A DNA stretch of 64,000 bases from a virus. Its lineage: Duplodnaviria; Caudoviricetes. The DNA lies in IMG/VR virus record IMGVR_UViG_3300037067_017823, positions 25,145 through 89,144 of that record. One strand, written 5' to 3'. A program made the translations under genes and the position numbers. A model generated the notes under the pieces. That model was not told where the DNA came from. It did not search any database and saw only the letters and a list, made by a program, of their open reading frames with translations. This document shows, in pieces, positions 1,976 through 39,608 of the stretch. Every line of letters starts with the position of its first letter. The first letter of the stretch is position 1.

Positions 1976-3958
1976 TTATTCTGAAGTGATTTTATCGTCA
2001 TTTTCAATAGAAACATCGAGCTCTTCTTTGTCTTCAAATTTCACTTTATTTATTCCACTAGTGATGATTTCTGTTAGAAGTCTATTTTTCCCACCGAGAT
2101 TTAGTGAAACCATTTCAGATTCGATGCCGTGAGCAAGGCGAGAAAATGTCTTTTTTCCATATGGATCATGCATTGTATCATCGTCATCATGTGTAACATC
2201 ATTGCTTAAATCAACAAGACCACTTTGATTTCTGTTCTTCGACTGCCTTCTTTTTCTTTCATAATCTGTTTCTTTTTTCTTTGCCCTTGCTTTATCAAAT
2301 GCATCATTTGCAGCAGTCACGAGTTCACCTTCACCGCCACCAACTTCAGCTTCTGCTCCACCTTCTTCAGCACCACCAAGCTCTGCTTCTTCTCCACCGA
2401 GTTCCTCACCACCGAGTTCTTCTCCTTCAACAGGAGGTTCAGCACCTCCACCACCCATCATTCCTCCACCACCGCCTCCACCCATCATCTCACCCCCACC
2501 TTCAGCAGAACCTTGTTCACCAGCCTTTTGTTCAACGAATGCAATTTGCCCATCAACATAAGCATCTTTCATTCTTCCAATATTTATTTGCTTAATGTCA
2601 TCATCTTTGAGATTGAAGAAGCGTTTTAGAACATAGGAACGATCGAATAACTTTTCATTATTGAGACCAGAGACAACCTGAACTCTTCTTTCGAGAAGGT
2701 CAAGTTTCTGCATTGAAGCGAGGTTCGATGGATTCGTTAGCTTCAAATCGAAACCAAGAAGATCTTTTCCTGAATATCCTTGAGAAATCAAGTGGACCAT
2801 AGCAATCTTTGTGAGTTCAGAAACTATAGCTCTCTGTATTCTTTCTATTGTTCTTGAAAAACGAATATCGAGAGATGCGAGAGTTGATTTATTTGCAAGA
2901 TCTTCTTCATACGTCAAATATGCTCTCGGTATTCCAAGAGCAGCAATCAGTTTCTTGAGAAGATATTCTACGTCTTCAATATCATTGACATGTTGACCAC
3001 CTGGAAGTGATTCAATTCTATTTGTTTTGTCACCTCTTTGAGGAATAAAGTAGTCTTCAGAAACATCGAGTGGGTCGAATCTTTGATCAACTTTACCATA
3101 AAGCTTGTTCACAACGTTTGCATTTCTAAGTTTCGCCTTAATTTTTTGCATGAACTCTTCAACGTTTTGTGGTTGAACACCTGAAACGTCGATATAAAAA
3201 ACTCTTCTTTCTGGAGCTCGAAGAACACGATAAACAAGCATTGCGTCTTCCATGAGAACGAGTTTCCGCCAGAAAGATCGAGCTCCCTCAATGAACGATG
3301 TTCCATATGGAAGAAATTTATCTTGACCGAGAAGACGGAAGTGAGCAACCTGCCAGTTTTCTAGTAAGCGGTTTGTTGTTAACCACTTGAATCTTATTTC
3401 TTGAGGATCTTCCTTTGAACCTTCGAGTCGTTCAAAGTCATTAACTGGAATTGTTATGAGACGTTCAATGCCATTTTTTGGATGAACGTCGATATACTGA
3501 GTGAAGTCGCCATATTTACAGAGTGTTCTCGCCCACCCCCAAATATAAAAATCAATGTCAAGAATATCGAAGAATAACGATTCAAGAATTTGCTTTATTG
3601 ACTCATTCTCAGATTCTACGAATAAAACTTTTCCATCTTCAGAACGCGAAGTAGCTTCATCAGCTACGAGGTTAAGAGCGCTGGCTATTTCTGGTACGGA
3701 CTCCATAAGGCAAAACTCAGTGTACCTTGCAAGCCTATTCGTATCATAGTTTGCATTTGACCCATCACCAAACCATTGTGACGCTCCAAGATTGCTTCTT
3801 TGAAGTCCAAAATCTCGCATGAAAGAAGTGACTTCTTCTTTCGTATCGAGAGACGGCTTTATTCTTGACGAAACGAGCGAACCGCGCTTCATCAAACGCC
3901 AAAGATTACGAAACGTACTTACGTTTCCGAACTTCGGTCCATCGTTTTTATTATCCAT
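1976..3958 (-). CDS. gp20: Portal (head vertex) protein, T4 gp20-like
   Basis: Diagnostic LMEDAMLVYRVLRAPERRVFYIDV motif, EDYFIPQRG, ALGIPRAYL; Gly/Glu-rich C-terminal tail. Confidence 0.95.
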   Translation of the reverse strand: MDNKNDGPKFGNVSTFRNLWRLMKRGSLVSSRIKPSLDTKEEVTSFMRDFGLQRSNLGASQWFGDGSNANYDTNRLARYTEFCLMESVPEIASALNLVADEATSRSEDGKVLFVESENESIKQILESLFFDILDIDFYIWGWARTLCKYGDFTQYIDVHPKNGIERLITIPVNDFERLEGSKEDPQEIRFKWLTTNRLLENWQVAHFRLLGQDKFLPYGTSFIEGARSFWRKLVLMEDAMLVYRVLRAPERRVFYIDVSGVQPQNVEEFMQKIKAKLRNANVVNKLYGKVDQRFDPLDVSEDYFIPQRGDKTNRIESLPGGQHVNDIEDVEYLLKKLIAALGIPRAYLTYEEDLANKSTLASLDIRFSRTIERIQRAIVSELTKIAMVHLISQGYSGKDLLGFDLKLTNPSNLASMQKLDLLERRVQVVSGLNNEKLFDRSYVLKRFFNLKDDDIKQINIGRMKDAYVDGQIAFVEQKAGEQGSAEGGGEMMGGGGGGGMMGGGGAEPPVEGEELGGEELGGEEAELGGAEEGGAEAEVGGGEGELVTAANDAFDKARAKKKETDYERKRRQSKNRNQSGLVDLSNDVTHDDDDTMHDPYGKKTFSRLAHGIESEMVSLNLGGKNRLLTEIITSGINKVKFEDKEELDVSIENDDKITSE

Positions 3959-5126
3959 TTTCTTGTTTCCTTAATTTGCTGAAAAATAAATCAAGTTGCG
4001 AACTGTTACCACAAACAAAATACGGCTCTTCGTCATAATCACTATATCGAATAAAGTTTATGTTATTGTCCTGAAAATATTTATTCACTTCTACATCTTT
4101 AAAATGCGTTTCATATATTTTGTGATCTCTTTTGTTCTTTGATTCTTTTAACTCTTCTACAGTCTTGTTTAGACCGTGCCAATAAGAAGAGTCTTGCATT
4201 ATAAAAAATCTTTGTTCATTTACAGAAACAACAAAATCAATTATTGAAAGTCTTTTTTTGTTGTTTGAATCAATAAATTCAACGTTATGTTGTCTTTCGA
4301 CGTCGTTAAAAAAACAACACAGTGATTTGTATTTTTCTTCTTCTGGTTTCGATTTTCCATACGAACAATTCAATTTCATAGTATTACTTGCTTTTTTAGC
4401 ATTCTCTACGAAAAAACTTGGATTTTCTTTCTTTAGTCTGTCGATAACTTGTTTATGAGTCGTATCGTTATTTATTCTTGATAGTCTCACTTTTTCTTTT
4501 GACTTTGCTGTTATTACTCCAGCGCTATTTCCATTAGCTTTCATTGTGGCTTGAGTTTTAGCTGCATTTTTGTGATAAAAATCTGGATCTTTTTTTCTTA
4601 TTCTTTCGACTACCTCATTATATGTAGTATGATTCTCTTTTCTCGTTTCTTTAGCTTTTATCTGACCAGTCGAAAAAGAATTTTCTTTTCTTCTTGTTTC
4701 AACCATTTTTTTAATTGTTTGATCAAATTTTCCAGACTCTTTTAATTTTCTTACTCTTTCTCTTTGGCTCTGTTTTAGTTTTTCACTATTTGTTAGGCTC
4801 ATTTTAAGTTTATTTATCATTTGCTCATAAGAACCATCACTCTTCATTCTTGCTATTCTTTTATCACTATATTCTTTTGCTTTTCCGCTGATGCCGTTTT
4901 CTATGTTTCGGCAACTCGTTGCGCAACCTTTACAGCAAAAATTTCGTTCTTTTTGTGCACAAAATCGTTTATAGAAATATTTTTTACAATTATGACATTC
5001 TATCCATTCATCTGTTAGAAAGCGCTCTGAATAGTTTTTGATTGTTATTTTATGAGAAGAAAAAATGTGCTGTTTTAGTCTTTTTCTATTTTCGCATTTC
5101 TTATTACATATTTTACAGAAAAACAT
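3951..5126 (-). CDS. Free-standing homing endonuclease 1, Vsr/DUF559 (EDxHD)-like with N-terminal C2H2 zinc finger
   Basis: CKIC..HIFSSH finger; C-terminal SKPEE..DF..DSSYWHG..KD..IRYSD motif; stop overlaps portal ATG. Confidence 0.8.
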   Translation of the reverse strand: MFFCKICNKKCENRKRLKQHIFSSHKITIKNYSERFLTDEWIECHNCKKYFYKRFCAQKERNFCCKGCATSCRNIENGISGKAKEYSDKRIARMKSDGSYEQMINKLKMSLTNSEKLKQSQRERVRKLKESGKFDQTIKKMVETRRKENSFSTGQIKAKETRKENHTTYNEVVERIRKKDPDFYHKNAAKTQATMKANGNSAGVITAKSKEKVRLSRINNDTTHKQVIDRLKKENPSFFVENAKKASNTMKLNCSYGKSKPEEEKYKSLCCFFNDVERQHNVEFIDSNNKKRLSIIDFVVSVNEQRFFIMQDSSYWHGLNKTVEELKESKNKRDHKIYETHFKDVEVNKYFQDNNINFIRYSDYDEEPYFVCGNSSQLDLFFSKLRKQENG

Positions 5127-5151: not shown

Positions 5152-8088
5152 CTAAATCTTTGCTATCAATAGTGCAAGGTGTTCAGCTTCATTATTGTTA
5201 TTAGGTTTTTTTCCTATATCAAATGCTTCTCTCGATGAAATGAAGCCTGAAACAAGAGTATCTATTTTTTGTATCGTTTTTTCAATTTCTTTGAAGTGTC
5301 TATCTTTTATAACTGCACAAATTGCGAGAGACATTATAATATCGTCAGTACTCCCTCTTGTTGCTTCTGGTCTCTGTCCCTTCCAAATGAATGTTGTAAA
5401 TTCATCATAACATCTCTTTGAGCGAATAGTAATAGCTCCAAGTCGAAGGAGCTCCTCAAGTTTCTGAAGCATACTTGGTCTTGATGTAGACGTTGTATGA
5501 AGACCAGCTTTCGCTGATTTGTTTCCAGTTGATTCCCAACAAGTGAGAACACCAAATGGCATTCCACCAAGCGACCTCGTAGAAAAATAAAGATCTTCAT
5601 ATTCGAGTTCAAGAATTTTTTGAATTACAGCATCACCATAAGAGTTCGATTCTGGAATTATTAATGCATTATTATATTCTCGTCCAATGTTCACAAGAAA
5701 CTCTGAAAAATCATTTGTTTTGATCTTACCTCTATATTCAGCAACAACTTCTCCTGTAGCAACATTCATGACACAAAACGCAGAAAAATCACCACCATCT
5801 CCTCTTGCGACATCAGCTCCAATCAAGTATCTTTGATCAAATTCAGAACTCTTCCAAATCCAAAGATCTCCTCTTTTTTGAATTGGTTCGCAAATTGTTT
5901 CATTGATTTTTTCAAAGATATTAGTGTCAAGAAATGTATTACCAGATTCGAGGAACTTACATTCATATTCTTGCGCAATTTCTCTTGTTGTTTTTCCTAT
6001 TCTCTCTTTTTCAAACCATTCCCTCGAGAATCTTCTGCTCCATGGATATTCTTTTACTTTAAATTCGTTTTCTCCGTTTTGAGCACCAGTAACTATTTCC
6101 CAAAACTTGTTTCCAACACCTCTCGGCGTGGAAGCCATGACGCATCTTCCGCCTGTATTACTACCTATTATTCCGTTCTGTAGGAATGAATGTGTCTTTG
6201 GTACTGTAAAGTCATAAGTGATATTCTCAGAATCTTTTATATCAACGATCTCGTCCCAAAAACATCTATGTTCAATCAGATCGTTAAATAGTCTATCTTG
6301 ACTTTCAGTTATTTTTATATTTTGCTCTCTTATTATATTTACAAACTTACAGATCCAATTGAAAGTTATTTTCTTATACTTATCAACATATAAAAGATCT
6401 GTTCTAACTTTATTTCTTCTAAAGAAACTTTTGGACTTACCTGAATTCTTGATTATGTCTTTGAACTGTTCAACGACAACATGTTTTGGAATTGTTTCGC
6501 GTTTCCAAATCTGAATTCGTTCTTTTGATTGTTTTCTAAGTCTGTCGTTTTTACGTTTTATTCTGAATCCAATATTTTGTTTAAAGACAGTTAAATAGCT
6601 TCTTGAAATAGATAGCTTCCAACAATTATGTGCACTCTTTGGTAACTTACCTCTAGGTAATACGCATCCCTTATCTAAAAGTTTTTGTAAGTCATCATCA
6701 TGCATCAATCGTATATAAGAAACGATTCCAAAATTTAACAATAATAACTGAGTTTGTATTAATAACTTGTGACTCGAACTTACTAAAACAATGTCTCCTT
6801 TTTCTCCTATACAACCATCACCATCGAACAGCCCTGACAAAAAAGAACCAATGATTTCTTTTGAGCATTCAAATATTTTTTCTGGAATGTGTTTTGTATG
6901 ACTTTTATTAACCCTGTTTATGCCAATAGCTTTAAAAAGTCTAACCATCTCTTTCGAACAGCAAATAAGTTTTCCTTTACTTCCTTCGTAGTCTGGCTTT
7001 TGACTATGAAACTCTTTTATAACTTTATTTTTTAAGAACACTTTTCTAAATTCATCGTCTTCGTTACTAATTAAAACTCCATTTCCTATATCGTTAATAT
7101 CTTTAGAACCAGTTATCCAACCTTCAGCAACATATCCACCTAAAATATATGCGAAATTTTTTGTGAGATATTTGAGCTGTTTATGACCAACGAAGTTATT
7201 ATTTCCCCATACATTCATATCAACATCAACGCGGAGACAGTCTCCAATCTTGAGATTTTCCATTGCAGTCATTTCAGATCCGTTTTCAGTGAGCTTCAAT
7301 AATGGATGTATAAGAGTTGTTTCAAGTTGGAGACCATGTCTAGTTGTTATTATCTTCGTCTTACTTTTTGGAGAAACATATGCATGAGAAACTTCTTCGA
7401 TACCTTTTCTTCCATATATTTTTAAACCATTGACTTTATTACTATATTCTCCTTCATTAATGTCTTTACAGATGTCATCAATTCTTTTGAAACCACTCTC
7501 TGTGAGTATCATTGTGTTGCCAGTTACACAAGAAATAGTCGGGAAGAGCCCTACCCAATGTTCTCTCAGTTTCTCAATAAGAGCAGCTTCGTCAATAAAG
7601 AACAGAGATGCTGCTTCACCAACACCGGCGTCCATAGAAGTAGCTTGACTCTTTACCCATGATCCATTTGATAACTCAAAGCGCATCGAATTGTTCTTAA
7701 CAACAGAATATAATCTAAGCCATTGTGGACATTCAGTAACAAAGGTTTTTACCATCTCAAAAGAGATTCCAGCTTTTTCTCTCTTTGTTGCCATAATGAA
7801 AACGTGACGAGCTTTTCGAAAGAGAATATACCAAGCAATGAAGCCAGCAATTATCGTTGAAACACCGAGCTGTCTTGATTTTAGAACTGCGAGGTAGCGA
7901 TTTTCTTGAAGTTCTTGTAATATTTCTCTTTGGTAGTCAAAGAGCTCAAATCTTTTTATGCCAAATTCTTCTGTTCTTATATAGCCATATTGATCGAGGA
8001 AGTACTCTACACTATCAGCACATTTCAAAAATTCAGACTTTATAAACTCTTTTGTGAGACCAGACGAATCGTGTTTTGGATCAGCCAT
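5152..8088 (-). CDS. terL: Terminase large subunit (T4 gp17-like) containing an intein; about 520 aa after splicing
   Basis: LKSRQLG Walker A region, FFIDEAA Walker B, ASTPRG motif III, nuclease IGADVARGDGGDFS and DDIIMS; adjacent to portal. Confidence 0.95.
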   Translation of the reverse strand: MADPKHDSSGLTKEFIKSEFLKCADSVEYFLDQYGYIRTEEFGIKRFELFDYQREILQELQENRYLAVLKSRQLGVSTIIAGFIAWYILFRKARHVFIMATKREKAGISFEMVKTFVTECPQWLRLYSVVKNNSMRFELSNGSWVKSQATSMDAGVGEAASLFFIDEAALIEKLREHWVGLFPTISCVTGNTMILTESGFKRIDDICKDINEGEYSNKVNGLKIYGRKGIEEVSHAYVSPKSKTKIITTRHGLQLETTLIHPLLKLTENGSEMTAMENLKIGDCLRVDVDMNVWGNNNFVGHKQLKYLTKNFAYILGGYVAEGWITGSKDINDIGNGVLISNEDDEFRKVFLKNKVIKEFHSQKPDYEGSKGKLICCSKEMVRLFKAIGINRVNKSHTKHIPEKIFECSKEIIGSFLSGLFDGDGCIGEKGDIVLVSSSHKLLIQTQLLLLNFGIVSYIRLMHDDDLQKLLDKGCVLPRGKLPKSAHNCWKLSISRSYLTVFKQNIGFRIKRKNDRLRKQSKERIQIWKRETIPKHVVVEQFKDIIKNSGKSKSFFRRNKVRTDLLYVDKYKKITFNWICKFVNIIREQNIKITESQDRLFNDLIEHRCFWDEIVDIKDSENITYDFTVPKTHSFLQNGIIGSNTGGRCVMASTPRGVGNKFWEIVTGAQNGENEFKVKEYPWSRRFSREWFEKERIGKTTREIAQEYECKFLESGNTFLDTNIFEKINETICEPIQKRGDLWIWKSSEFDQRYLIGADVARGDGGDFSAFCVMNVATGEVVAEYRGKIKTNDFSEFLVNIGREYNNALIIPESNSYGDAVIQKILELEYEDLYFSTRSLGGMPFGVLTCWESTGNKSAKAGLHTTSTSRPSMLQKLEELLRLGAITIRSKRCYDEFTTFIWKGQRPEATRGSTDDIIMSLAICAVIKDRHFKEIEKTIQKIDTLVSGFISSREAFDIGKKPNNNNEAEHLALLIAKI
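6157..7530 (-). mobile_element. Intein (458 aa) with LAGLIDADG homing endonuclease in TerL
   Basis: FPTIS|CVTGNT N-junction, TT..HP block B, LGGYVAEG and FLSGLFDGDG motifs, YDFTV and HSFLQNGIIGSN|T C-junction. Confidence 0.95.
8041..8088 (-). repeat. Copy 2 of 48 nt direct repeat (terL codons 1-16)
   Basis: ATGGCTGATCCAAAACACGATTCGTCTGGTCTCACAAAAGAGTTTATA; 44/48 identical to 9158-9205. Confidence 0.95.
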
Positions 8089-9205
8089 AAAACTTTCTCC
8101 AAAATGAATCTAATTGATTTGATTCGCCATTACAATAATATGGTAACATTTTCTCAGTTTTGTTTTTAAGAAAATTAGTAATAGAAACATCAGAAAATTT
8201 TACTACGTTTATACACATATTCTTGCTAGAAATATAGTCTTCAAGATATCTATCTCTATAATATGTTTCAAATATCGTTTTGTCTGTCTTTGTTCTTAAA
8301 TTTGCTATTTCAACTATTGGTCTATCAAGACCGTGATAATAGATACCATCAATACATATAAAAATAATTCGACCATCTTCTACAACAGCAAAATCAAAAG
8401 TGAAAGATTTTTTGTAATCTTCTAGTCTTAAGCCAAACAGTTTTATAAATTCATTTGAGTTTATACTTATTTGATTATGAACGCAATTAAATTTTGAACT
8501 CAAAAATGACCCAAACTTGCTTTCTGGATTTGATTTGTTATACGTCCCATTTTTCTTTCTTGTTTCAGAAATTTTCAAAGAAACAAGTCTATTAAAAATA
8601 GCTCCTTTTGATTTTCTTGTATTTACTCCCTTAATAGCTGACTCACTTCTTTTAACGAGAAATTTTTCAGTGTAATAACCGTTTTGTCTCTTTTTTAAAA
8701 GAGTTTTTTTACCTATAACAGATAAAAGACCTTTTTTTCTTAAATTCTCTGCTCTCTTCAAAGCGCAAATATGATAAATGTTTTTACTTTTTAACGTCTT
8801 TTTTGAATTTTCAATAACTTTTTTTTGTATATGAGGAGTCACAAAAGAATTTTTAAATCCATATTTTTTTAAAAAACTTTTTTCAATAGACATTTTTCTA
8901 AATTGATTCATGCATTTTTTGTTATTACAAGTATTTTTAAGACGTAACCTAATGTAACCATAACTTCTAAAATAATTTTTGTTACAGACAGCGCAATTAC
9001 ATATTTCATCAGTATGATGCTTCCAAGCGTATTCAATTCTAGAGATATTATGTTGAGCTAATAGATGACCAGAAAAACCTTGTGAACCTATATATGTATT
9101 ACAACATCTACATAAAATACTAAACTTGCTGTCTAATATTTTGATATCTTTACAGTCAATAAACTCTTTTGTGAGACCAGAAGAGTCATGTTTTGGATCA
9201 GCCAT
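8081..9205 (-). CDS. Free-standing homing endonuclease 2 (EDxHD-like) whose first 16 aa equal the TerL N-terminus
   Basis: MADPKHDSSGLTKEFI, then CRCC..H..H finger; SNPE..FDF..DGIYYHG..RD nuclease motif; stop overlaps terL ATG. Confidence 0.85.
   Translation of the reverse strand: MADPKHDSSGLTKEFIDCKDIKILDSKFSILCRCCNTYIGSQGFSGHLLAQHNISRIEYAWKHHTDEICNCAVCNKNYFRSYGYIRLRLKNTCNNKKCMNQFRKMSIEKSFLKKYGFKNSFVTPHIQKKVIENSKKTLKSKNIYHICALKRAENLRKKGLLSVIGKKTLLKKRQNGYYTEKFLVKRSESAIKGVNTRKSKGAIFNRLVSLKISETRKKNGTYNKSNPESKFGSFLSSKFNCVHNQISINSNEFIKLFGLRLEDYKKSFTFDFAVVEDGRIIFICIDGIYYHGLDRPIVEIANLRTKTDKTIFETYYRDRYLEDYISSKNMCINVVKFSDVSITNFLKNKTEKMLPYYCNGESNQLDSFWRKFYG
9158..9205 (-). repeat. Copy 1 of 48 nt direct repeat (terL codons 1-16, fused to endonuclease 2)
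   Basis: ATGGCTGATCCAAAACATGACTCTTCTGGTCTCACAAAAGAGTTTATT; all four differences from copy 2 are synonymous third positions. Confidence 0.95.
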
Positions 9206-9208
9206 ACA

Positions 9209-9216
9209 TTAATTAT
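9209..9216 (-). promoter_or_regulatory. Putative late promoter ATAATTAA
   Basis: 3 nt upstream of ATG 9205; same motif upstream of starts at 1936, 23206, 28501, 39564, 41179 (ATAATTAG) and 42812. Confidence 0.55.
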
Positions 9217-9241
9217 GATTTTGTGGAACTTTTAGTAGGTC

Positions 9242-9526
9242 TTAATATATTTTTAGTCTTGGACTAGTAGCTTTATCTTCAGACGGAATCGATATTTTTA
9301 CATTTAGTTTTATTTCTATTTTCTTAAGTTGTTCAAGAAATTTTTTCTTATCACTGGGACTGTCGAGAGCATCGAGTTCAGCCTGAATGGCTAGAGGAAG
9401 ATCATGTTCTAAGATTGTGTTTATTTTTTGAAATTTATTGGAACGAAGTCTTTCAAGCTCAGTCTTCTCACTATCGCTATCTCTCTATTCTCTAATAACC
9501 TTTCTTATTTCTTTTCTTAGGTTCAT
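9242..9526 (-). pseudogene. 94-codon ORF interrupted by one in-frame TAG at codon 14 (9485-9487)
   Basis: MNLRKEIRKVIRE*RDSDSEKTELERLRSNKFQKINTILEHDLPLAIQAELDALDSPSDKKKFLEQLKKIEIKLNVKISIPSEDKATSPRLKIY; ATGA overlap with upstream gene; fills an otherwise empty 300 nt gap. Confidence 0.7.
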
Positions 9527-9846
9527 CTTCTCTCGTATCCTTTAATTCCGAGTTCTTCTCCTATATCGCCTTCTGTTTCATTTGTTATACTATTAAGATT
9601 CATAAATGCTTCTTCAAAATTATCCCAAGCGTCTTTTACATTTCTAGGAAGTTTATTGTACGAAGAATTTGAAAATTTTATAGAAGCCCAAAGGCCACTG
9701 CCACTGCCCCCAGGACTGCGCCGACCTATTGTTTTTTCTAGTTCACGTAGTGCTTCAAATTGTTCTTCTTTAGAATAATCTTTTCCAAATCCAGGAATCT
9801 CTTCGTCTTTTGACATAACTTCTCTGATCGTCTTTCTTAAGTTCAT
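9523..9846 (-). CDS. Small hypothetical protein with MNLRKTIRE leader (start revised to 9846)
   Basis: ATG 9846 has GGAAGG SD and avoids overlap with 9848-10243. Confidence 0.75.
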   Translation of the reverse strand: MNLRKTIREVMSKDEEIPGFGKDYSKEEQFEALRELEKTIGRRSPGGSGSGLWASIKFSNSSYNKLPRNVKDAWDNFEEAFMNLNSITNETEGDIGEELGIKGYERR

Positions 9847-9847
9847 G

Positions 9848-10243
9848 TTATTCCTTCCCTTCTTTCTGATCCATTTCATAGAGCTTTTTAAATGTGAGCT
9901 TAAAGCGTCCATTGAGTGATATACATTCAACGTCTGAACTCTCAGCAACAATTTTTGCCTTGAGTGTCTCATCAAAGTCTTTCTTCAGATTTTCCTTCAG
10001 TTTCTTGAGAAGACCATCAACATTCGCCGATGCTTCTTTGAGAGCATTGTTTTTTCTATCTGGATCTTGAAGATGATTTTCATATGACGAACAATAGATA
10101 CAAAATTGTTTATCTTCATTAAACTTTATTCCGAAACCGATAGATGGAGAAGTCTTTTCTATACTGTTGAAAGATCGAGAGATTTTGTCCCATATATTTA
10201 GAACGTTTTCGAGATGATTTGATTCTTCTTTTTTTTCTGACAT
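9848..10243 (-). CDS. Hypothetical protein (head/packaging region)
   Basis: 131 aa ORF, GGGA SD. Confidence 0.7.
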   Translation of the reverse strand: MSEKKEESNHLENVLNIWDKISRSFNSIEKTSPSIGFGIKFNEDKQFCIYCSSYENHLQDPDRKNNALKEASANVDGLLKKLKENLKKDFDETLKAKIVAESSDVECISLNGRFKLTFKKLYEMDQKEGKE

Positions 10244-17974: not shown

Positions 17975-19435
17975 TTAAAATAAGTCATAATCAATATTGT
18001 TTAGCTTATTAATTATTTCTGAGTTCAATTTATCGTCACAGCAACTAAAGAAACTGTTGAGGAGTTGTTTATTTTTAGTGCAACATTTAATGTCTATGTC
18101 ACTGAATCTAAGCACATGTTGGCCATTGTTTAAAACCCATTCGTTAAACGATCTATCTTTTAGTAACGTCTTATAAATAGTTCTATCTCTCGGTGTCTTA
18201 AATTGTTTAATTTCTTCTTCATCTCTACCAAGACCATGCCAGTATGAATCAACGAGAATGATTACTTCTTCATTTTTGTCAGTCTTCACAAGAAAATCAA
18301 CACAGAGATTTTGATCCTCTCCAAACGGTACATTTTGTTGACGAAGAATAGTCCAGTCAAGAGGAAACTTTCTACACATAAGTTGATAGAGAAAATCTTC
18401 AGAAGCACTCTTTCCATATGTTCCATTTCGTTTCATTGTCTGATGTCTTATAATTGCCGCTTTTTTATAAGAACCTCTTTCTAACATATGCAATTTTCTT
18501 TTTGCTTGAGCTTCAGGAGAGTTGCATTTATCTCGAACTTTTTCAGTCTTTAATATATTATCAACACCATAGTTTTTAATAAACGTTTCTTTTATTTTTT
18601 CTTTTACATCTTCTCTTTGACCATGACATTCAACACCATATTCTAATAAACAATCTTGTTGTATCTGTTTTTTAACTTCAGGATTTTGCATCGCATTCTT
18701 ATAACCAGTTTTTTCAAAATAAGTATCTTCCATTTTCTTTACAACATCTTCTGAACAAGCTGGAGCATTTCCACCATATCTATCATTATTTGTTTCTATA
18801 CGCTGTGGCATTCCTTTTGCAATTCGTTCCTTCGCTCTATCTGAATCATAAAATCCGTTTTCCCACTTTTTTTCTTCTGCTTTTCTTATCGCTTCGTCTC
18901 TTTTTTGTGATGGCGTTTTTCTAAACAAAACACCAGCATCGCTCCAAGTTTTTACAATATTTTTAAATTGCTCTGACTCAAAATATCCATTGTCTTTTTT
19001 TGTTTCTATCGATTTTTTAGCTCTCTCTTTTGATTTGACGCTGTCGTAAAAACCATCTTGTCTCTTTTTTTCAGCAATTTCAAAACGAACACTGGGATTG
19101 TCTTCGTGCCACTTTTTAGTTCCTTCTGAAATGCTCTTCGCAAAATCTTTATTTCCTTTTAATCGATTATAATGACCATTTTCTCTATTTGTTTTTCCAA
19201 TTTTCTTTCCGCGATCTTGAAACGATTTTTTAACACATTCTTTGTTATAACAAATTTTCCTAGTTTTTCGTGATGATAATTTACGATAAAATTCTTTATT
19301 ACAATATTTACAAACAACTATTTCGTCTGTATGAAACATGAAAGCATACTGTTCTCTTGTTAATTTGTGCTCTTTTTCTAAATGAGCATTAAAATGAGCA
19401 ACTTCTTTATTGCAAATCTGACAGATTGTTTTCAT
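17975..19435 (-). CDS. Free-standing homing endonuclease 3 (EDxHD-like)
   Basis: CQIC..H..H finger, xYGV-type basic repeats, GKSASE..VDF..DSYWHG..KD..LRFSD. Confidence 0.8.
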   Translation of the reverse strand: MKTICQICNKEVAHFNAHLEKEHKLTREQYAFMFHTDEIVVCKYCNKEFYRKLSSRKTRKICYNKECVKKSFQDRGKKIGKTNRENGHYNRLKGNKDFAKSISEGTKKWHEDNPSVRFEIAEKKRQDGFYDSVKSKERAKKSIETKKDNGYFESEQFKNIVKTWSDAGVLFRKTPSQKRDEAIRKAEEKKWENGFYDSDRAKERIAKGMPQRIETNNDRYGGNAPACSEDVVKKMEDTYFEKTGYKNAMQNPEVKKQIQQDCLLEYGVECHGQREDVKEKIKETFIKNYGVDNILKTEKVRDKCNSPEAQAKRKLHMLERGSYKKAAIIRHQTMKRNGTYGKSASEDFLYQLMCRKFPLDWTILRQQNVPFGEDQNLCVDFLVKTDKNEEVIILVDSYWHGLGRDEEEIKQFKTPRDRTIYKTLLKDRSFNEWVLNNGQHVLRFSDIDIKCCTKNKQLLNSFFSCCDDKLNSEIINKLNNIDYDLF

Positions 19436-20462: not shown

Positions 20463-21512
20463 CTAAAATGCTCCTATTTTTCTTAGATTATGACTTTTGA
20501 AATAAGTATTCAGTTTATCAAAAAGAAAGTCTATGTCATCACTTTTTCCACAAACAAAATGCGGAATTAAATTTTCTTTACCATTTATAAAAGACTCAAA
20601 ATTAATATCATTAAAACGGATTAAGTTTATATTATTTTTCATACAGTGTTTTTCAAATAAAATATCGCGCTCGATAGTTTTTATTATAGTTTTCTTTTGT
20701 GGAGTATTGTTGATATCTTTAAGATTTTTTTTCAAGCCATGATAATATAAACCATCGAACGGGACAATGTAAATTTTATTTTCGAGTTTTAATATTATGT
20801 CGCTTGTAAATGAACTGTCTAATTTTTCGTTTAAGAAAACTTTTCCTTCTTCAGAATTCATCTTTACTTGTTGAAATATATTTTTGTCACTAAAAATTAA
20901 ATGAGCAAGCCAAGAAAAAGCAAGTTCAGCATTTGAAACACATCGATATGTCCCATTTCTTTTTCTAGTATCATGAACTTTTTGAACCCAAGAGTTAACA
21001 TTTTCTTTAGATCTGTTTTTCCACATCTTTTTATTTTTTCTTGAAAAGAAACCGGGATCGCGCTCTTTTCTATTTTCAGTCCACTTTTTAGCAGCACCAA
21101 AATACTTCTCTGGATTTTTTGCGTGATCGATTCTGATTTTTTCAGCAAATATGATATCAGAACCATTCTTCAACATTGTATTTCTTCGTTTTTTCGATCT
21201 CTCTTCTATAGTTCCGTTTTTTCTCATAGTACTGAACTGTTTTTGTCTAGCTTTATCATATGAGCCATCTAAATTCATTTGTTTAACTTTATATTCATGT
21301 CGACACTTCTTACAAGCTTTATATTTTAGATTTTTCCACCACTTTTTCGCTATAAAAAACCCATCACCACAAACAGGACAAATAAACCATTCTTCAGTTT
21401 TATAGGTTTCAGCATATTTCTCTTTTGTTAGCTTATGCGTCCATCTAATGTGACTAGCAAGAGACCATACAGAGTCACATTCTTTTCCACAAGCTTGACA
21501 AAAGAAATTCAT
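20463..21512 (-). CDS. Free-standing homing endonuclease 4 (EDxHD-like)
   Basis: CQAC..H..H finger; SNAE..SD..DGLYYHG..RD..IRFND. Confidence 0.8.
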   Translation of the reverse strand: MNFFCQACGKECDSVWSLASHIRWTHKLTKEKYAETYKTEEWFICPVCGDGFFIAKKWWKNLKYKACKKCRHEYKVKQMNLDGSYDKARQKQFSTMRKNGTIEERSKKRRNTMLKNGSDIIFAEKIRIDHAKNPEKYFGAAKKWTENRKERDPGFFSRKNKKMWKNRSKENVNSWVQKVHDTRKRNGTYRCVSNAELAFSWLAHLIFSDKNIFQQVKMNSEEGKVFLNEKLDSSFTSDIILKLENKIYIVPFDGLYYHGLKKNLKDINNTPQKKTIIKTIERDILFEKHCMKNNINLIRFNDINFESFINGKENLIPHFVCGKSDDIDFLFDKLNTYFKSHNLRKIGAF

Positions 21513-21516
21513 ATTT

Positions 21517-22233
21517 TTAAGAACTGCTTTCAGTTAGTGTTATAGCAATAGTTGTGTGAAGACCACTTGTTGTTCCTGTAAATTTAGCAAGAGTTGTAAT
21601 TTGTCTATTAGGAGCAACCGTTCCAGAATTTGCATATGATGACCACTGTTCTGATGTTACTTCTCTGCTTCTAAAATAAACATTGCAGCTATTTACGTTT
21701 GTAATCTGTGTTGAATTTGTTGGTGCAATATAACTACCGATGTTATATGCGGAAATATTAACGAGATCAACTTTATCACAGATAAGTAAATCGTCATCAA
21801 CTTGAACGATGAATGACGGATCCCATATTTGAGACGGAATTGACGCGACATCATTTGTAATCATTTTTTGTGAAACAGTAACAACGAATGAGTTTTTTAT
21901 TGCATCTCTATAATACTTTGTTACAGTTGTAGGTTCTGTAACTATTTTGGGAAGATATTTAAGATTTGGAATATCGCAAGACATAGCAGGATATTTTAAT
22001 GCAAACGATTCGTTAATGAAACCCTCAAAAACAGGAGAGACGAGAATAGCCGCATCTTCAGCTCCTGGGTTTGCTGGATTCCAAAGGTTGTAATCAATCT
22101 CATCATCTGAAGCAGTCCAACGTGTAATTGCAAACGAGCCATCACCTCTCGAAATAAATTGACGGCCCAGGTCAGTAAGAACGGCATCAATTATTACAGT
22201 CGATGTCGGAAAATCACTGTTAAGAAAGCCCAT
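21517..22233 (-). CDS. Conserved virion structural protein (MGFL..DAVLTDLGRQ family)
   Basis: N-terminal motif shared with 30303-30917; located in tail/baseplate operon. Confidence 0.6.
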   Translation of the reverse strand: MGFLNSDFPTSTVIIDAVLTDLGRQFISRGDGSFAITRWTASDDEIDYNLWNPANPGAEDAAILVSPVFEGFINESFALKYPAMSCDIPNLKYLPKIVTEPTTVTKYYRDAIKNSFVVTVSQKMITNDVASIPSQIWDPSFIVQVDDDLLICDKVDLVNISAYNIGSYIAPTNSTQITNVNSCNVYFRSREVTSEQWSSYANSGTVAPNRQITTLAKFTGTTSGLHTTIAITLTESSS

Positions 22234-23206
22234 AGTTCTTCTCCTTTAGCGAATTTAAAAATCTATCTATATCATTGCTTTTTCCGCAGACATAGTACGG
22301 AATCAGTTTTTCTTTTTTTGATAAAAACATTTTAAAGTTGATATCATTGAATCTTAATAAGTTGATATCATTTTTTTGACAAAAGTCTTCCAAATTTCTG
22401 TCTCTATAATAAGTATCAAATATAGTTTTGTCTGTGAGTGTTCTACATTTTGCTATTTCAGTAATCGGCCGATCAAGACCATGATAATAAATTCCATCAA
22501 AACATACGAAATACATATCGTCTACAACAAAGTCAAAATTGTGATAACCTTTCATGAACTTAAATAAGCCTTCTTTTTTCTCATTCAGTGTTGAAACTTG
22601 TCTATTCACTTTAGTAAATTTGTCTTTCAATAAATTATAGAAAAAGTCTTCAGCCTTGCTTTTACCGTATGATTTATTGTTTTTTAAAGTCTGGTGTCTT
22701 TTTAAAATCATTCGATCATAGGTGCCATCACTTCTACATCTATCGTAGACACCCTTATTAACTCTTGTTAGGTGGGCTTTAACGCCAGATTTTTTAAAAG
22801 AATCAATGTCATTTTTCTTTCTTGTCATAGCAGTTTTGAGAGCCGAGTTTATACCTCTTGCTTTTCTAGTTTTAGCAGACTTTGTAGCTATTTCATTTCT
22901 AATCTTTAATTCGTCGAGCCGCTTATTTAATAAAGCGCCCGATCTTAAAAATGAACCATTTTCTATCATTTTTTTTACTGAATTCTTTTTGGAACACTCT
23001 CTGCACATCTGCTGTTTTCTTTTTCGCTGTTGAGCCATTGACCTATAAAAAGCTTTCCCACAGCTACACTCAATTAATTCTTCGGTTTTATATTTTTCAG
23101 CGTATGTTTTTTTATCAATGTCTTTATGTTTCTGCCCTATGTGAGTATTCAAAGAAACAATATTTTTGAAGCTTTTGTTACAAATTTTACAATCACAAAT
23201 CATCAT
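22220..23206 (-). CDS. Free-standing homing endonuclease 5 (EDxHD-like), closest to endonuclease 2
   Basis: CKIC..H..H finger; GKSKAE..FDF..DGIYYHGLDRPITEIA..TDKTIFDTYYRDR nearly matches endonuclease 2. Confidence 0.82.
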   Translation of the reverse strand: MMICDCKICNKSFKNIVSLNTHIGQKHKDIDKKTYAEKYKTEELIECSCGKAFYRSMAQQRKRKQQMCRECSKKNSVKKMIENGSFLRSGALLNKRLDELKIRNEIATKSAKTRKARGINSALKTAMTRKKNDIDSFKKSGVKAHLTRVNKGVYDRCRSDGTYDRMILKRHQTLKNNKSYGKSKAEDFFYNLLKDKFTKVNRQVSTLNEKKEGLFKFMKGYHNFDFVVDDMYFVCFDGIYYHGLDRPITEIAKCRTLTDKTIFDTYYRDRNLEDFCQKNDINLLRFNDINFKMFLSKKEKLIPYYVCGKSNDIDRFLNSLKEKNYGLS

Positions 23207-24732: not shown

Positions 24733-26667
24733 TTATAACCTTCTTCTCCTCAATGAAGCGGGCGTACTTAGAGTATCAATTATTCTTCTTGAAACTATTT
24801 CAGTTGTTGATTCTAGTGTGTCTATACTTTCAGTTCTTGTTGCTTCATCTTCTCTTGCAGCTTCACCACTTAGAATGTCTATGCGTGACTGAAAAGCTGT
24901 AGCAGAACCCATAACTTTGAGACCAGTTTCTCTAACAGTTGAAGTATATATTGGTTCACTTGTTACACTGCCCATTATAGCAGGATCAATTGTTTGAATC
25001 TCTTCTTCTGATAAATCAGTTGATAATATTGTTGATTCCGAACTTACTTCTGGCATAAATGTATCAGAATATGTCGCCGAACTATAAAATGATTCAACTT
25101 CAATAAGTGACGTACTGTATATCCACTTTATTAGAGATGACATTTTGTATCGATATCGTCTATTATACAAAATATTAAAATCATAGTAGCAAGAAGTGTG
25201 ACAATCGTCAAGCATTACAACTTCTTTTAGTTTCCACTTGTTTTCGTACCATTCGTATTTGTGAATTAGATAACCAACATATTGTAATCTTGGTGGTGCA
25301 TCGCTACGTTTTCTAAGTAGATTATGATCTGTAATGAATATCATATTATCAACAATGTCTTTTGTTTCTCTATTGTTAAATTCATGCACGATTTTGTTCC
25401 AAAAAGAAGAGTTTGCAAATTTGTTGATTGAAGAACTACAAATTGTTATATAGGTATCCCTCGGCATCGCTGTGAACGTTGAGGGTGTCATTGAACTAGG
25501 AGTAGTTGATATACTAGTCATCAATGTTCCACCAGATGAAGCAAAAGACGGAGATGATGTAGATGTTGAAAATGTTCCGGGAGAAGAAACAAAAGTTGGC
25601 ATTGATGATACGCTTGGAGATACTGATGAAATGACGTTTGAATCTTTTCTAAACACTTGAGAAAAATAATATTCATTAAGAACTTGTATTTCTGAAACGT
25701 TTGATATGTTGCCACTAATTGGCACGATTACAGTATCTATACCAGAACCACCCTGAATTGGATTCCAAGTTAATTTTATATATCGTGGCATACATTTAAA
25801 TGCTGCAGCCGCATCATAATAGTTTGAAGAATTTACAGCCGCATCACCCTCACCACGAGTTGATTCATCTGAAGTGTAAAAATTATAAAAGGACGTTGTT
25901 CTCAAATTTGTAACTTTCTTAAGACCGTTTAGAACTCCATATGAAGATAAGTTTTTTGTTGTAAACTGAAAGTCATCTATAATTTCTTCCGCTTTAAATA
26001 CGAGTTCTTCATCATCACTATTGAATGGATCTGACCCTAGTGAAAGAGCATAAATATAGTTGAGAGAATTTACATCGCTGTTCTTGCTTGAAAGAAATAA
26101 ATATATATCGTCAACTTCGTCGAAGGTGTCATATGTTGTCAGCAATGTACATATTCGTTCATAATGATTGTTTATTAATTGATCAAGTTGATCAGCATAT
26201 AACATTCTTTGCGTTGTGTATGAACCAAACCACGCTGTAGAATAATTGAGATACTCCATCGATGATATAAAAACATAAAAATCATTGAAGTCTGCAATCA
26301 GATCAATTTTTGTGTAAGTCCCTCTCTTTTTTAAGAAACAATGTTTTGCGATTATGAATAATATTTGTGAATCAATGTATGCTTGAGTGTTGCCACCAGC
26401 CACTAAATCAAGAAGGTTCATCTCAATATCGATGTTAAAATAAGATGGACGGCCAGATGTTCCAATAGCTATATACAAATCATTAACAAGTAGATTATAC
26501 ATTCGATCTGATAATACTCCACGTAATCCTTCATTTGTATAATTGCTAGGAATTTGAGGTTCTTTCTTCCACAAGTCAACGTGCAAAGAAACAATTTTTT
26601 CAGCAAACGGAGCAGAAATAAATTCTGGAATTGTAGAAATTACTGAATCTGGCATTATTGTTGGCAT
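24733..26667 (-). CDS. Putative virion protein with Ser/Thr-rich segments
   Basis: 644 aa ORF in structural operon; SPGTFSTSTSSPSFASSGG tract. Confidence 0.6.
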   Translation of the reverse strand: MPTIMPDSVISTIPEFISAPFAEKIVSLHVDLWKKEPQIPSNYTNEGLRGVLSDRMYNLLVNDLYIAIGTSGRPSYFNIDIEMNLLDLVAGGNTQAYIDSQILFIIAKHCFLKKRGTYTKIDLIADFNDFYVFISSMEYLNYSTAWFGSYTTQRMLYADQLDQLINNHYERICTLLTTYDTFDEVDDIYLFLSSKNSDVNSLNYIYALSLGSDPFNSDDEELVFKAEEIIDDFQFTTKNLSSYGVLNGLKKVTNLRTTSFYNFYTSDESTRGEGDAAVNSSNYYDAAAAFKCMPRYIKLTWNPIQGGSGIDTVIVPISGNISNVSEIQVLNEYYFSQVFRKDSNVISSVSPSVSSMPTFVSSPGTFSTSTSSPSFASSGGTLMTSISTTPSSMTPSTFTAMPRDTYITICSSSINKFANSSFWNKIVHEFNNRETKDIVDNMIFITDHNLLRKRSDAPPRLQYVGYLIHKYEWYENKWKLKEVVMLDDCHTSCYYDFNILYNRRYRYKMSSLIKWIYSTSLIEVESFYSSATYSDTFMPEVSSESTILSTDLSEEEIQTIDPAIMGSVTSEPIYTSTVRETGLKVMGSATAFQSRIDILSGEAAREDEATRTESIDTLESTTEIVSRRIIDTLSTPASLRRRRL

Positions 26668-28501: not shown

Positions 28502-28539
28502 TTCTACTTCTTAATTATATTTTTGCTCAATTTATGTTT

Positions 28540-39564: not shown

Positions 39565-39608
39565 TTCTACTTAATTATCGAAAATCTAATATTTTTTATT
39601 GCGCAAAA

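Follow-up and report, generated by a model that had tools for sequence, protein, structure and literature searches.

A homing-endonuclease-type gene has probably captured the start of a phage terminase gene that is rebuilt from a short duplication

The terL locus and the HE1 protein

We analysed 64,000 nucleotides (nt) of phage DNA (Caudoviricetes; positions 25,145–89,144 of the IMG/VR record IMGVR_UViG_3300037067_017823, hereafter the window), in which the terminase gene terL is overlapped at its start by an open reading frame (ORF), here called HE1, whose product is a predicted homing endonuclease that begins with the same residues as TerL. The source is an AT-rich, 89-kb IMG/VR viral contig, estimated to be about 44% complete, that encodes a portal of the T4 type and a fusion protein resembling Mre11/Rad50. 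The minus strand is the coding strand for all genes in this part of the window, and all features of the locus given below lie on it. The terL gene (5152–8088) is complete, with 978 codons and matches to the Pfam families Terminase_6N, Intein_splicing and LAGLIDADG_3 as well as to PHROG terminase families. HE1 (8081–9205) encodes 374 residues, comprising the 16 terL-derived residues, C2H2-like zinc fingers, a helical linker and a Vsr-like nuclease domain.

HE1 and TerL share an identical 16-residue N terminus, MADPKHDSSGLTKEFI. The 48-nt copies that encode it (8041–8088 in terL and 9158–9205 in HE1) differ at four positions, nucleotides 18, 21, 24 and 48 of the ORFs, which read CAC/CAT, GAT/GAC, TCG/TCT and ATA/ATT (terL/HE1). 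All four are third codon positions and all are silent, an outcome with a chance probability of about 0.002 for random changes and of 0.01 if only transitions are allowed. The upstream copy of terL nucleotides 1–47 (9159–9205), which forms HE1 codons 1–16, is contiguous with the native terL leader (9206–9235), just as at sites without the element; this leader, now 5′ of HE1, includes ATAATTAA at 9209–9216, 3 nt before the HE1 ATG, and aligns with the leaders of relatives that lack HE1. The downstream copy (8042–8088) is the predicted working start of terL and carries derived silent changes at 8071, 8068 and 8065. Between the copies lies a segment of 1,069 nt (8090–9158) that holds the body of HE1 and, towards its 3′ end, a Shine–Dalgarno (SD) sequence for terL as read from the sequence: GGAG at 8097–8100, within the HE1 codons for W-R-K and 8 nt upstream of the terL ATG. 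The terL ATG and the TGA stop of HE1 (8081–8083) fall within an overlap of 8 nt, ATGGCTGA (8081–8088). terL itself has lost the native leader, cataattaatgtATG, which has no SD, and the present terL start is preceded by one. An earlier note on this DNA, made by a model from the letters and a list of ORFs, had pointed to the common 16-residue start, the four silent third-position differences, the motif in front of the upstream copy, and the SD and stop–start overlap in the last codons of the endonuclease gene; each of these observations is reproduced here.

Because ATG, GTG and TTG are absent from HE1 between codon 1 and M99, the terL-derived ATG is the only plausible start of HE1, whose expression would hence rely on the terL leader. 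Downstream of HE1 follows a full terL from Met1, colinear with orthologs of 518–519 residues except for an intein, so terL is undisrupted without splicing, as the earlier note had suggested. HE1 has its own stop and no intein motifs in Pfam, and an intron was rejected as an explanation because an Rfam search over 7800–9900 returned none at E ≤ 1. The host gene is not split into two separately translated parts that are both needed; the 3′ end of HE1 does, however, overlap the downstream ORF and supply its start, through ATGGCTGA and GGAG.

The HE1 family is large, with 1,482 cluster representatives matched by the family profile in a metagenomic protein library. Across 95 members, D271, H291, G292 and D318 never vary and E228 and D286 rarely do, and the core motif (F/I)DGxY(Y/W)HGLDRP includes a stretch, (F/I)DGxY(Y/W)HG, that resembles the Vsr active-site strand. 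The acidic and histidine residues among them may be counterparts of the composite E-D-x-H-D motif of the Vsr-like (EDxHD) family, which has an Mg-binding Asp, a general-base His and a neighbouring Asp. An AlphaFold (AF2) model built from this 95-sequence alignment has a mean predicted local distance difference test score (pLDDT) of 84.6, reaching 94–97 over most of the nuclease domain and at least 90 for most of the zinc-finger region; residues 1–15 are disordered in the model. In an exhaustive structure comparison (VIA-align), Escherichia coli Vsr ranked first (1cw0, Z 7.7, 112 aligned residues, root mean squared deviation 3.8) and the catalytic domain of I-Bth0305I third (3r3p, Z 6.6, 93 of 98 residues), scores that are middling (below 8) on the tool's own scale. 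Both matches fall on residues 224–371 (8093–8536), the predicted Vsr-like nuclease domain, which holds the residues conserved over the 95 sequences. Foldseek gave weak matches, all to PD-(D/E)XK nucleases. In profile searches the N-terminal part gave only weak C2H2 or Ros-type zinc-finger matches, the zinc-finger region spanning residues 30–100 (8906–9118) with C71, C74 and C98 conserved, and DUF7487 was matched in Pfam and PDB profile searches by one distant family member only.

Empty sites and probable capture of the terL start

Close terL relatives were drawn from a protein database searched with the terL N-extein, which yielded six contigs, five of which were compared (L009 and L028–L031). 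Their N-extein proteins are 86–90% identical to that of the window in L028, L029, L030 and L031 and 73% identical in L009, and the gene order is kept: genes for proteins of 320, 85 and 130 residues, variable small genes, terL and the portal gene. Phage GenBank records gave neither a DNA nor a protein match for the region or for HE1; scans of IMG/VR, of JGI metagenomes (among the matches listed) and of GTDB genomes did not return HE1 relatives, the negative for the metagenomes being a weak one, and a metagenome scan with the terL N-extein found relatives at 34–38% identity only.

In all five relatives the interval from the last small gene to terL is free of ORFs. Directly before terL, L028, L029 and L031 have a leader of about 30 nt, about 88% identical to the one before HE1 (cataattaatgt-ATG); this leader, ctaaaa..acaaatcataattaatgt, is 87–92% identical to that of the window over about 15–30 nt in these three relatives. 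By blastn, the leader and terL nucleotides 1–47 of L028 and L031 align with window positions 9235–9159 at 87–88% identity, and their terL from nucleotide −1 onwards aligns with 8089–7513. Homology to the empty site thus stops after terL nucleotide 47 (window 9159) and restarts 1 nt before the second ATG. Seven junction sequences were aligned for this comparison. The two blocks around 8090–9158 therefore define an insert of 1,069 nt after terL nucleotide 47, together with a duplication of 48 nt that consists of the base before the ATG and terL nucleotides 1–47. Because empty-site homology ends at nucleotide 47, the fourth difference between the copies, at nucleotide 48, lies at the insertion junction and outside the repeat proper. 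The window and the genome that encodes the protein P0002 have the site filled, and it is empty in L009, L028, L029, L030 and L031. On this comparison of sequences, a 1,069-nt insertion with capture of the start in the 5′ coding region of terL is well supported. The earlier note had placed the insertion about 47 nt into terL and had asked for relatives without the ORF, in which terL should directly follow its leader; both expectations are borne out.

P0002, a JGI protein of 372 residues encoded on a 1,860-nt contig from a different metagenome, is 69% identical to HE1. It starts MPDPKHDSS and continues as -VCKKIS, diverged from terL with a one-residue deletion, and its C terminus, FWRKFYA, is the same kind of end as that of HE1. 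The terminal Y-A-stop would correspond to TAT GCC TGA, which could contain a terL start ATG CCT GA (Met-Pro-Asp), as at the N terminus of P0002 itself; Pro2 is a natural terL allele, found in L028.

We propose, with a probability of about 0.8, that HE1 inserted into terL after nucleotide 47 and took the native leader and ATG for itself, and that terL was rebuilt from a duplicated start. The sequence comparison shows that the upstream copy is still joined to the native terL leader and holds the sole usable start codon of HE1, and that the downstream copy makes terL full-length again; we infer that the late expression signals of terL drive both transcription and translation of HE1. Translation of TerL would re-initiate, or be coupled to that of HE1, at the duplicated ATG, with the HE1-encoded GGAG and the ATGGCTGA stop–start overlap as aids. 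terL would remain unsplit, and neither an intron nor an intein would be needed; the borrowed terL peptide is likely to be a passenger. Recombination between the 48-nt direct repeats could also remove the element without a scar.

Several points weigh against this proposal. Use of both starts, and the coupling of their translation, are read from the arrangement of the sequence. On the P0002 contig, a second terL start would lie after ...TTTTATGCCTGA, the duplication there being deduced from the protein termini only. The nuclease activity of HE1 and its target are predictions, and the middling fold scores leave room for doubt; searches of Pfam, PHROGs and PDB sequences gave no match for the nuclease domain, Vsr and EDxHD proteins included, and the family may be too distant for a match at this level. 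Finally, ATAATTAA is not enriched in the window (11 found against 11.7 expected), and its role as a promoter is a guess. The suggestion of the earlier note that the element kept the original promoter and start of terL is supported for the leader and ATG.

As a general promoter motif, ATAATTAA was dropped on account of this lack of enrichment and retained as a conserved part of the terL leader, since it is also conserved in front of terL in the relatives. It lies at most 32 nt upstream of the start in five ORFs, in three of which it is followed by GTAGAA. In these cases GTAGAA comes within 0–3 nt of the motif (28511–28518, 39571–39578 and 1969–1976 (−)), and the combined sites precede long ORFs of 610, 144 and 270 residues, very near the ATG in two. 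The combination may be a phage-specific promoter or leader element.

Silent differences and competing explanations

The direction of change between the two copies was set with the five relatives as outgroup. At nucleotides 18, 21 and 24 the HE1 copy keeps the common state, CAT GAC TCT, and the terL copy is derived, CAC GAT TCG. The pair CAC and GAT also occurs in L031, which is free of the endonuclease at this site, and TCG occurs in no relative. The silent-only pattern is best explained by this polarity, with all three internal changes in the terL copy: changes in an essential gene persist only if they are silent, so that selection on the HE1 peptide need not be invoked for an all-synonymous pattern.

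The derived state of the terL copy has a further possible meaning, namely self-immunity, as put forward in the earlier note. The homing site would lie in the first 50 nt or so of terL, across the insertion point; the downstream copy, in which the full native context is kept, would have been recoded to CAC GAT TCG to escape cleavage, and the upstream copy would be safe because the insert takes away the other half of the site. It fits this idea that in each of the three internal differences it is the terL copy, not the HE1 copy, that is derived, that they fall in three consecutive codons (P of about 0.03 for three random third positions of 15) and that TCG is absent from the relatives. A long, split site is also plausible, as the dimer of I-Bth0305I, which among characterized enzymes has the closest homing-type fold, protects about 60 bp (PMC3239194). 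Yet CAC and GAT stand together in endonuclease-free L031, so that the cluster is accounted for just as well by one short conversion patch and a single mutation; the silent changes could be such a gene-conversion patch from an L031-like allele. The sample, moreover, is three substitutions and the cut site is hypothetical. We consider recoding for self-protection possible but on the whole unlikely. The broader notion of a self-contained mobile cassette new to phages, which lacks expression signals of its own, hijacks the start and leader of an essential late gene, brings its own SD and 16 fresh codons, protects its own copy by the three silent changes and could be lost through its direct repeats, is doubtful.

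The differences could instead be polymorphisms between a donor and a recipient, had the unit arrived from a diverged donor phage together with the 5′ end of the donor's terL. Allelic differences in terL are indeed mostly silent, CAC GAT is a natural allele in L031, and co-conversion of flanking markers is normal in homing, as in phage T4. Codon 2, however, is GCT (Ala) in both copies of the window and encodes Ser or Pro in all five relatives; the two copies agree at 44 of 48 nt, or 44 of the 47 positions of the repeat, whereas neither agrees with any relative at more than 43 of 47; and the two copies of the P0002 genome appear to share a single allele, Met-Pro. Because Ala2 is common to both copies, their mutual identity is the highest and the P0002 copies apparently share Pro2, the comparison favours duplication in place, or homogenization by gene conversion, over import as the origin of the second copy. 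Import of the end is improbable, and the statement in the earlier note that the element brought a replacement 5′ end is not supported. Along the terL N-extein, a sliding comparison with the relatives gave no clear change in which of them is closest around the insertion.

Much less probable still is that the terL peptide has a function in HE1, for example as a tag for the packaging machinery or in the control of stability, with selection on it leaving only silent differences. Such a role would agree with four of four differences being silent and with the retention of residues 1–9 (MxDPKHDSS) in P0002. But the HE1 copy holds no change that could be used to test for selection, and P0002, with its one-residue deletion, has no terL-like sequence after residue 9, so that the borrowed peptide is not conserved beyond that residue. 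Residues 1–15 are, in addition, predicted to be disordered, and the paralogs of HE1 work without such an extension.

Although the contig is a metagenome assembly, a repeat created by mis-joined strain variants is scarcely credible, given that the copies differ at four positions and have unique flanks, that the ORF is intact and in frame, and that P0002, a 69%-identical ortholog with the same N- and C-terminal features, comes from another data set and is therefore evidence against such an artefact.

A separate feature of the region, a 6-bp inverted repeat in terL nucleotides 20–43 (ACTCTT...AAGAGT), is weaker in the terL copy, with an apparent compensation in L031. It was set aside as evidence, having no support from covariation and unremarkable folding z-scores.

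Related elements and comparison with known systems

The genome search gave eight matches to HE1, with at least five further paralogs in the 89-kb contig: HE2 (window 22220–23206), HE3 (20463–21512), HE4 (within 17975–19435), HE5 (3951–5126, minus strand, between terL and the portal gene) and a sixth family member upstream of the window. At least six members of the family thus lie beside structural genes in this genome, and others occur in unrelated contexts on other phage contigs. The polymorphic presence of HE1 at its site, the multiple copies beside structural genes and the unrelated contexts elsewhere support its assignment as a free-standing, Vsr-like gene of the homing-endonuclease type whose product is a predicted nuclease. 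With the structural matches to Vsr (Z 7.7) and I-Bth0305I (Z 6.6), this sporadic, multi-copy distribution agrees with the homing endonuclease named in the earlier note.

The paralogs begin right at the first zinc finger, M-x-F-F-C-x-x-C. HE1 and P0002 alone have an extra N terminus of about 28 residues, made up of the 16 terL residues and a segment of 12–13 residues modelled as β-strands. Borrowed ends of host genes were also considered for other family members with long N termini and rejected, the extensions there being extra zinc-finger modules. At their 3′ ends, HE2 (AAGGAGaagaacTATGG..) and HE5 (AAGGAAacaagaaAATGG..) overlap the ATG of the next gene and have an SD in their last codons, and the frames of both extend a few codons beyond that ATG in the same register; HE3 has a GGAG SD and a stop that abuts the next ATG (TAG-ATG). 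Another relative, P0003 (L020:6001–7035), matches HE1 at 68% identity in the C-terminal third alone and resembles P0004 in its N-terminal half, which suggests that DNA-binding and nuclease modules are shuffled within the family.

Selfish elements of three kinds have hit terL: HE1 lies at its 5′ end, an intein within it and HE5 on its 3′ side. The LAGLIDADG intein of TerL (approximately residues 186–645) is separate from HE1 and unrelated to it. The TerL of L028 (P0008) has an intein at the same insertion point as the window, and that of L031 (P0011, 922 residues) has one at a different point; terL inteins are absent from L029, L030 and L009, the intein-free orthologs having 518–519 residues. 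A second hot spot lies between terL and the portal gene, in the spacer occupied by HE5 in the window (3951–5126), by ORFs of the same family that start MVYFCKICN in L029 (1888–2475) and L028 (after 6670; seemingly truncated) and by an ORF of 302 residues in L031 (8804–9712); it is reduced to about 50 nt in L030 and L009.

The small genes upstream of this locus form a group of their own. Unrelated small proteins with a near-identical N-terminal leader, MNLRKEI(K/R)xxI(K/R)E, are encoded in the window at 567–842, 9523–9846 and 9247–9526 (−) and also at L031:5289–5955 and L028:3229–3483, and the DNA repeat family D2 corresponds to this leader. Between the gene for the 130-residue protein and terL, 0 to 2 small leader-sharing genes are present, depending on the relative. 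In L028, 260 nt without a called gene and with stops in all three frames (3484–3742) separate the last small gene from terL. The small gene just upstream of HE1 in the window (9247–9526, minus strand) starts with the shared leader, MNLRKEIRKVIRE, which is followed by an in-frame TAG and then by about 80 open codons. At the position of the TAG the relatives have Q, H or L (IKEQ, IREH), and an ORF of L028 terminates with the leader. This gene could be a pseudogene, a recombination scar of leader cassettes, or a case of a single readthrough or recoded stop.

Homing endonuclease genes last in compact phage genomes only if the essential genes that they target are unharmed, which is known to be achieved by introns, inteins, insertion between genes or the splitting of a gene into two working halves. 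The terL locus would be a further solution, backed by relatives with empty sites, in which the host start is captured in frame and a short duplication rebuilds the gene.

Free-standing endonucleases of the Vsr-like and GIY-YIG types have been described in 'fractured' genes from phage metagenomes, where their 3′ ends overlap the downstream ORF and provide its start, and it was argued that a start site carried at the 3′ end aids invasion (Dassa et al. 2009, PMC2677866). HE1 resembles the Vsr-like (EDxHD) endonucleases of fractured genes in its phage and metagenome setting, in its two-part architecture with a C-terminal Vsr-like domain, in being free-standing in or next to an essential gene and in a 3′ end that supplies the downstream start signals. 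It differs in that terL is unbroken, without a split intein, and only 47 nt, which are duplicated, lie upstream; and HE1 has no leader or start of its own but is fused in frame to that of the host. The characterized Vsr-like members include I-Bth0305I, which as a dimer leaves a footprint of 60 bp and cuts adjacent to its own insertion site (Taylor et al. 2011, PMC3239194); unlike such members, HE1 has an N-terminal DNA-binding part of the zinc-finger type and no match to them at the sequence level.

With the intronless homing of the Seg and Mob endonucleases of T4-type phages, the element shares a sporadic occurrence next to essential genes and a predicted dependence of its expression on its neighbours, and by this parallel immunity of the carrier genome would be expected from polymorphisms in the target. 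Seg and Mob genes lie between genes or split one, as mobE, cited in the fractured-gene study, splits nrdA in phage Aeh1 (PMC2677866), whereas HE1 takes over the start codon of its host and compensates with a 5′ duplication. A literature search returned no description of such a takeover by a homing endonuclease with a compensating 5′ duplication.

Among fungi, the atp6 gene of Allomyces is the classic case of a homing endonuclease gene with a duplicated terminus. C-terminal duplications of mitochondrial atp6 and cob, flanked by GIY-YIG or LAGLIDADG ORFs, are known from fungi (PMC6279837). There, as in HE1, the endonuclease ORF may share the phase of the host gene, and a coding region tolerates the insertion, since a second copy of the displaced terminus leaves the gene full-length. 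The fungal genes, however, read on from the host ORF at its 3′ end, are organellar and belong to other nuclease families; here it is the 5′ end, with the start, that is duplicated, and the host is a phage.

For annotation, ORFs of this kind could be mistaken for truncated or duplicated terL starts. The locus offers a natural system for the late expression of such elements, for re-initiation at a downstream essential gene and for carrier immunity through silent recoding. Capture of the 5′ end and start codon, as proposed here for a phage terL, is different from all three precedents, the fractured-gene endonucleases, the T4-type endonucleases and those of fungal mitochondria.

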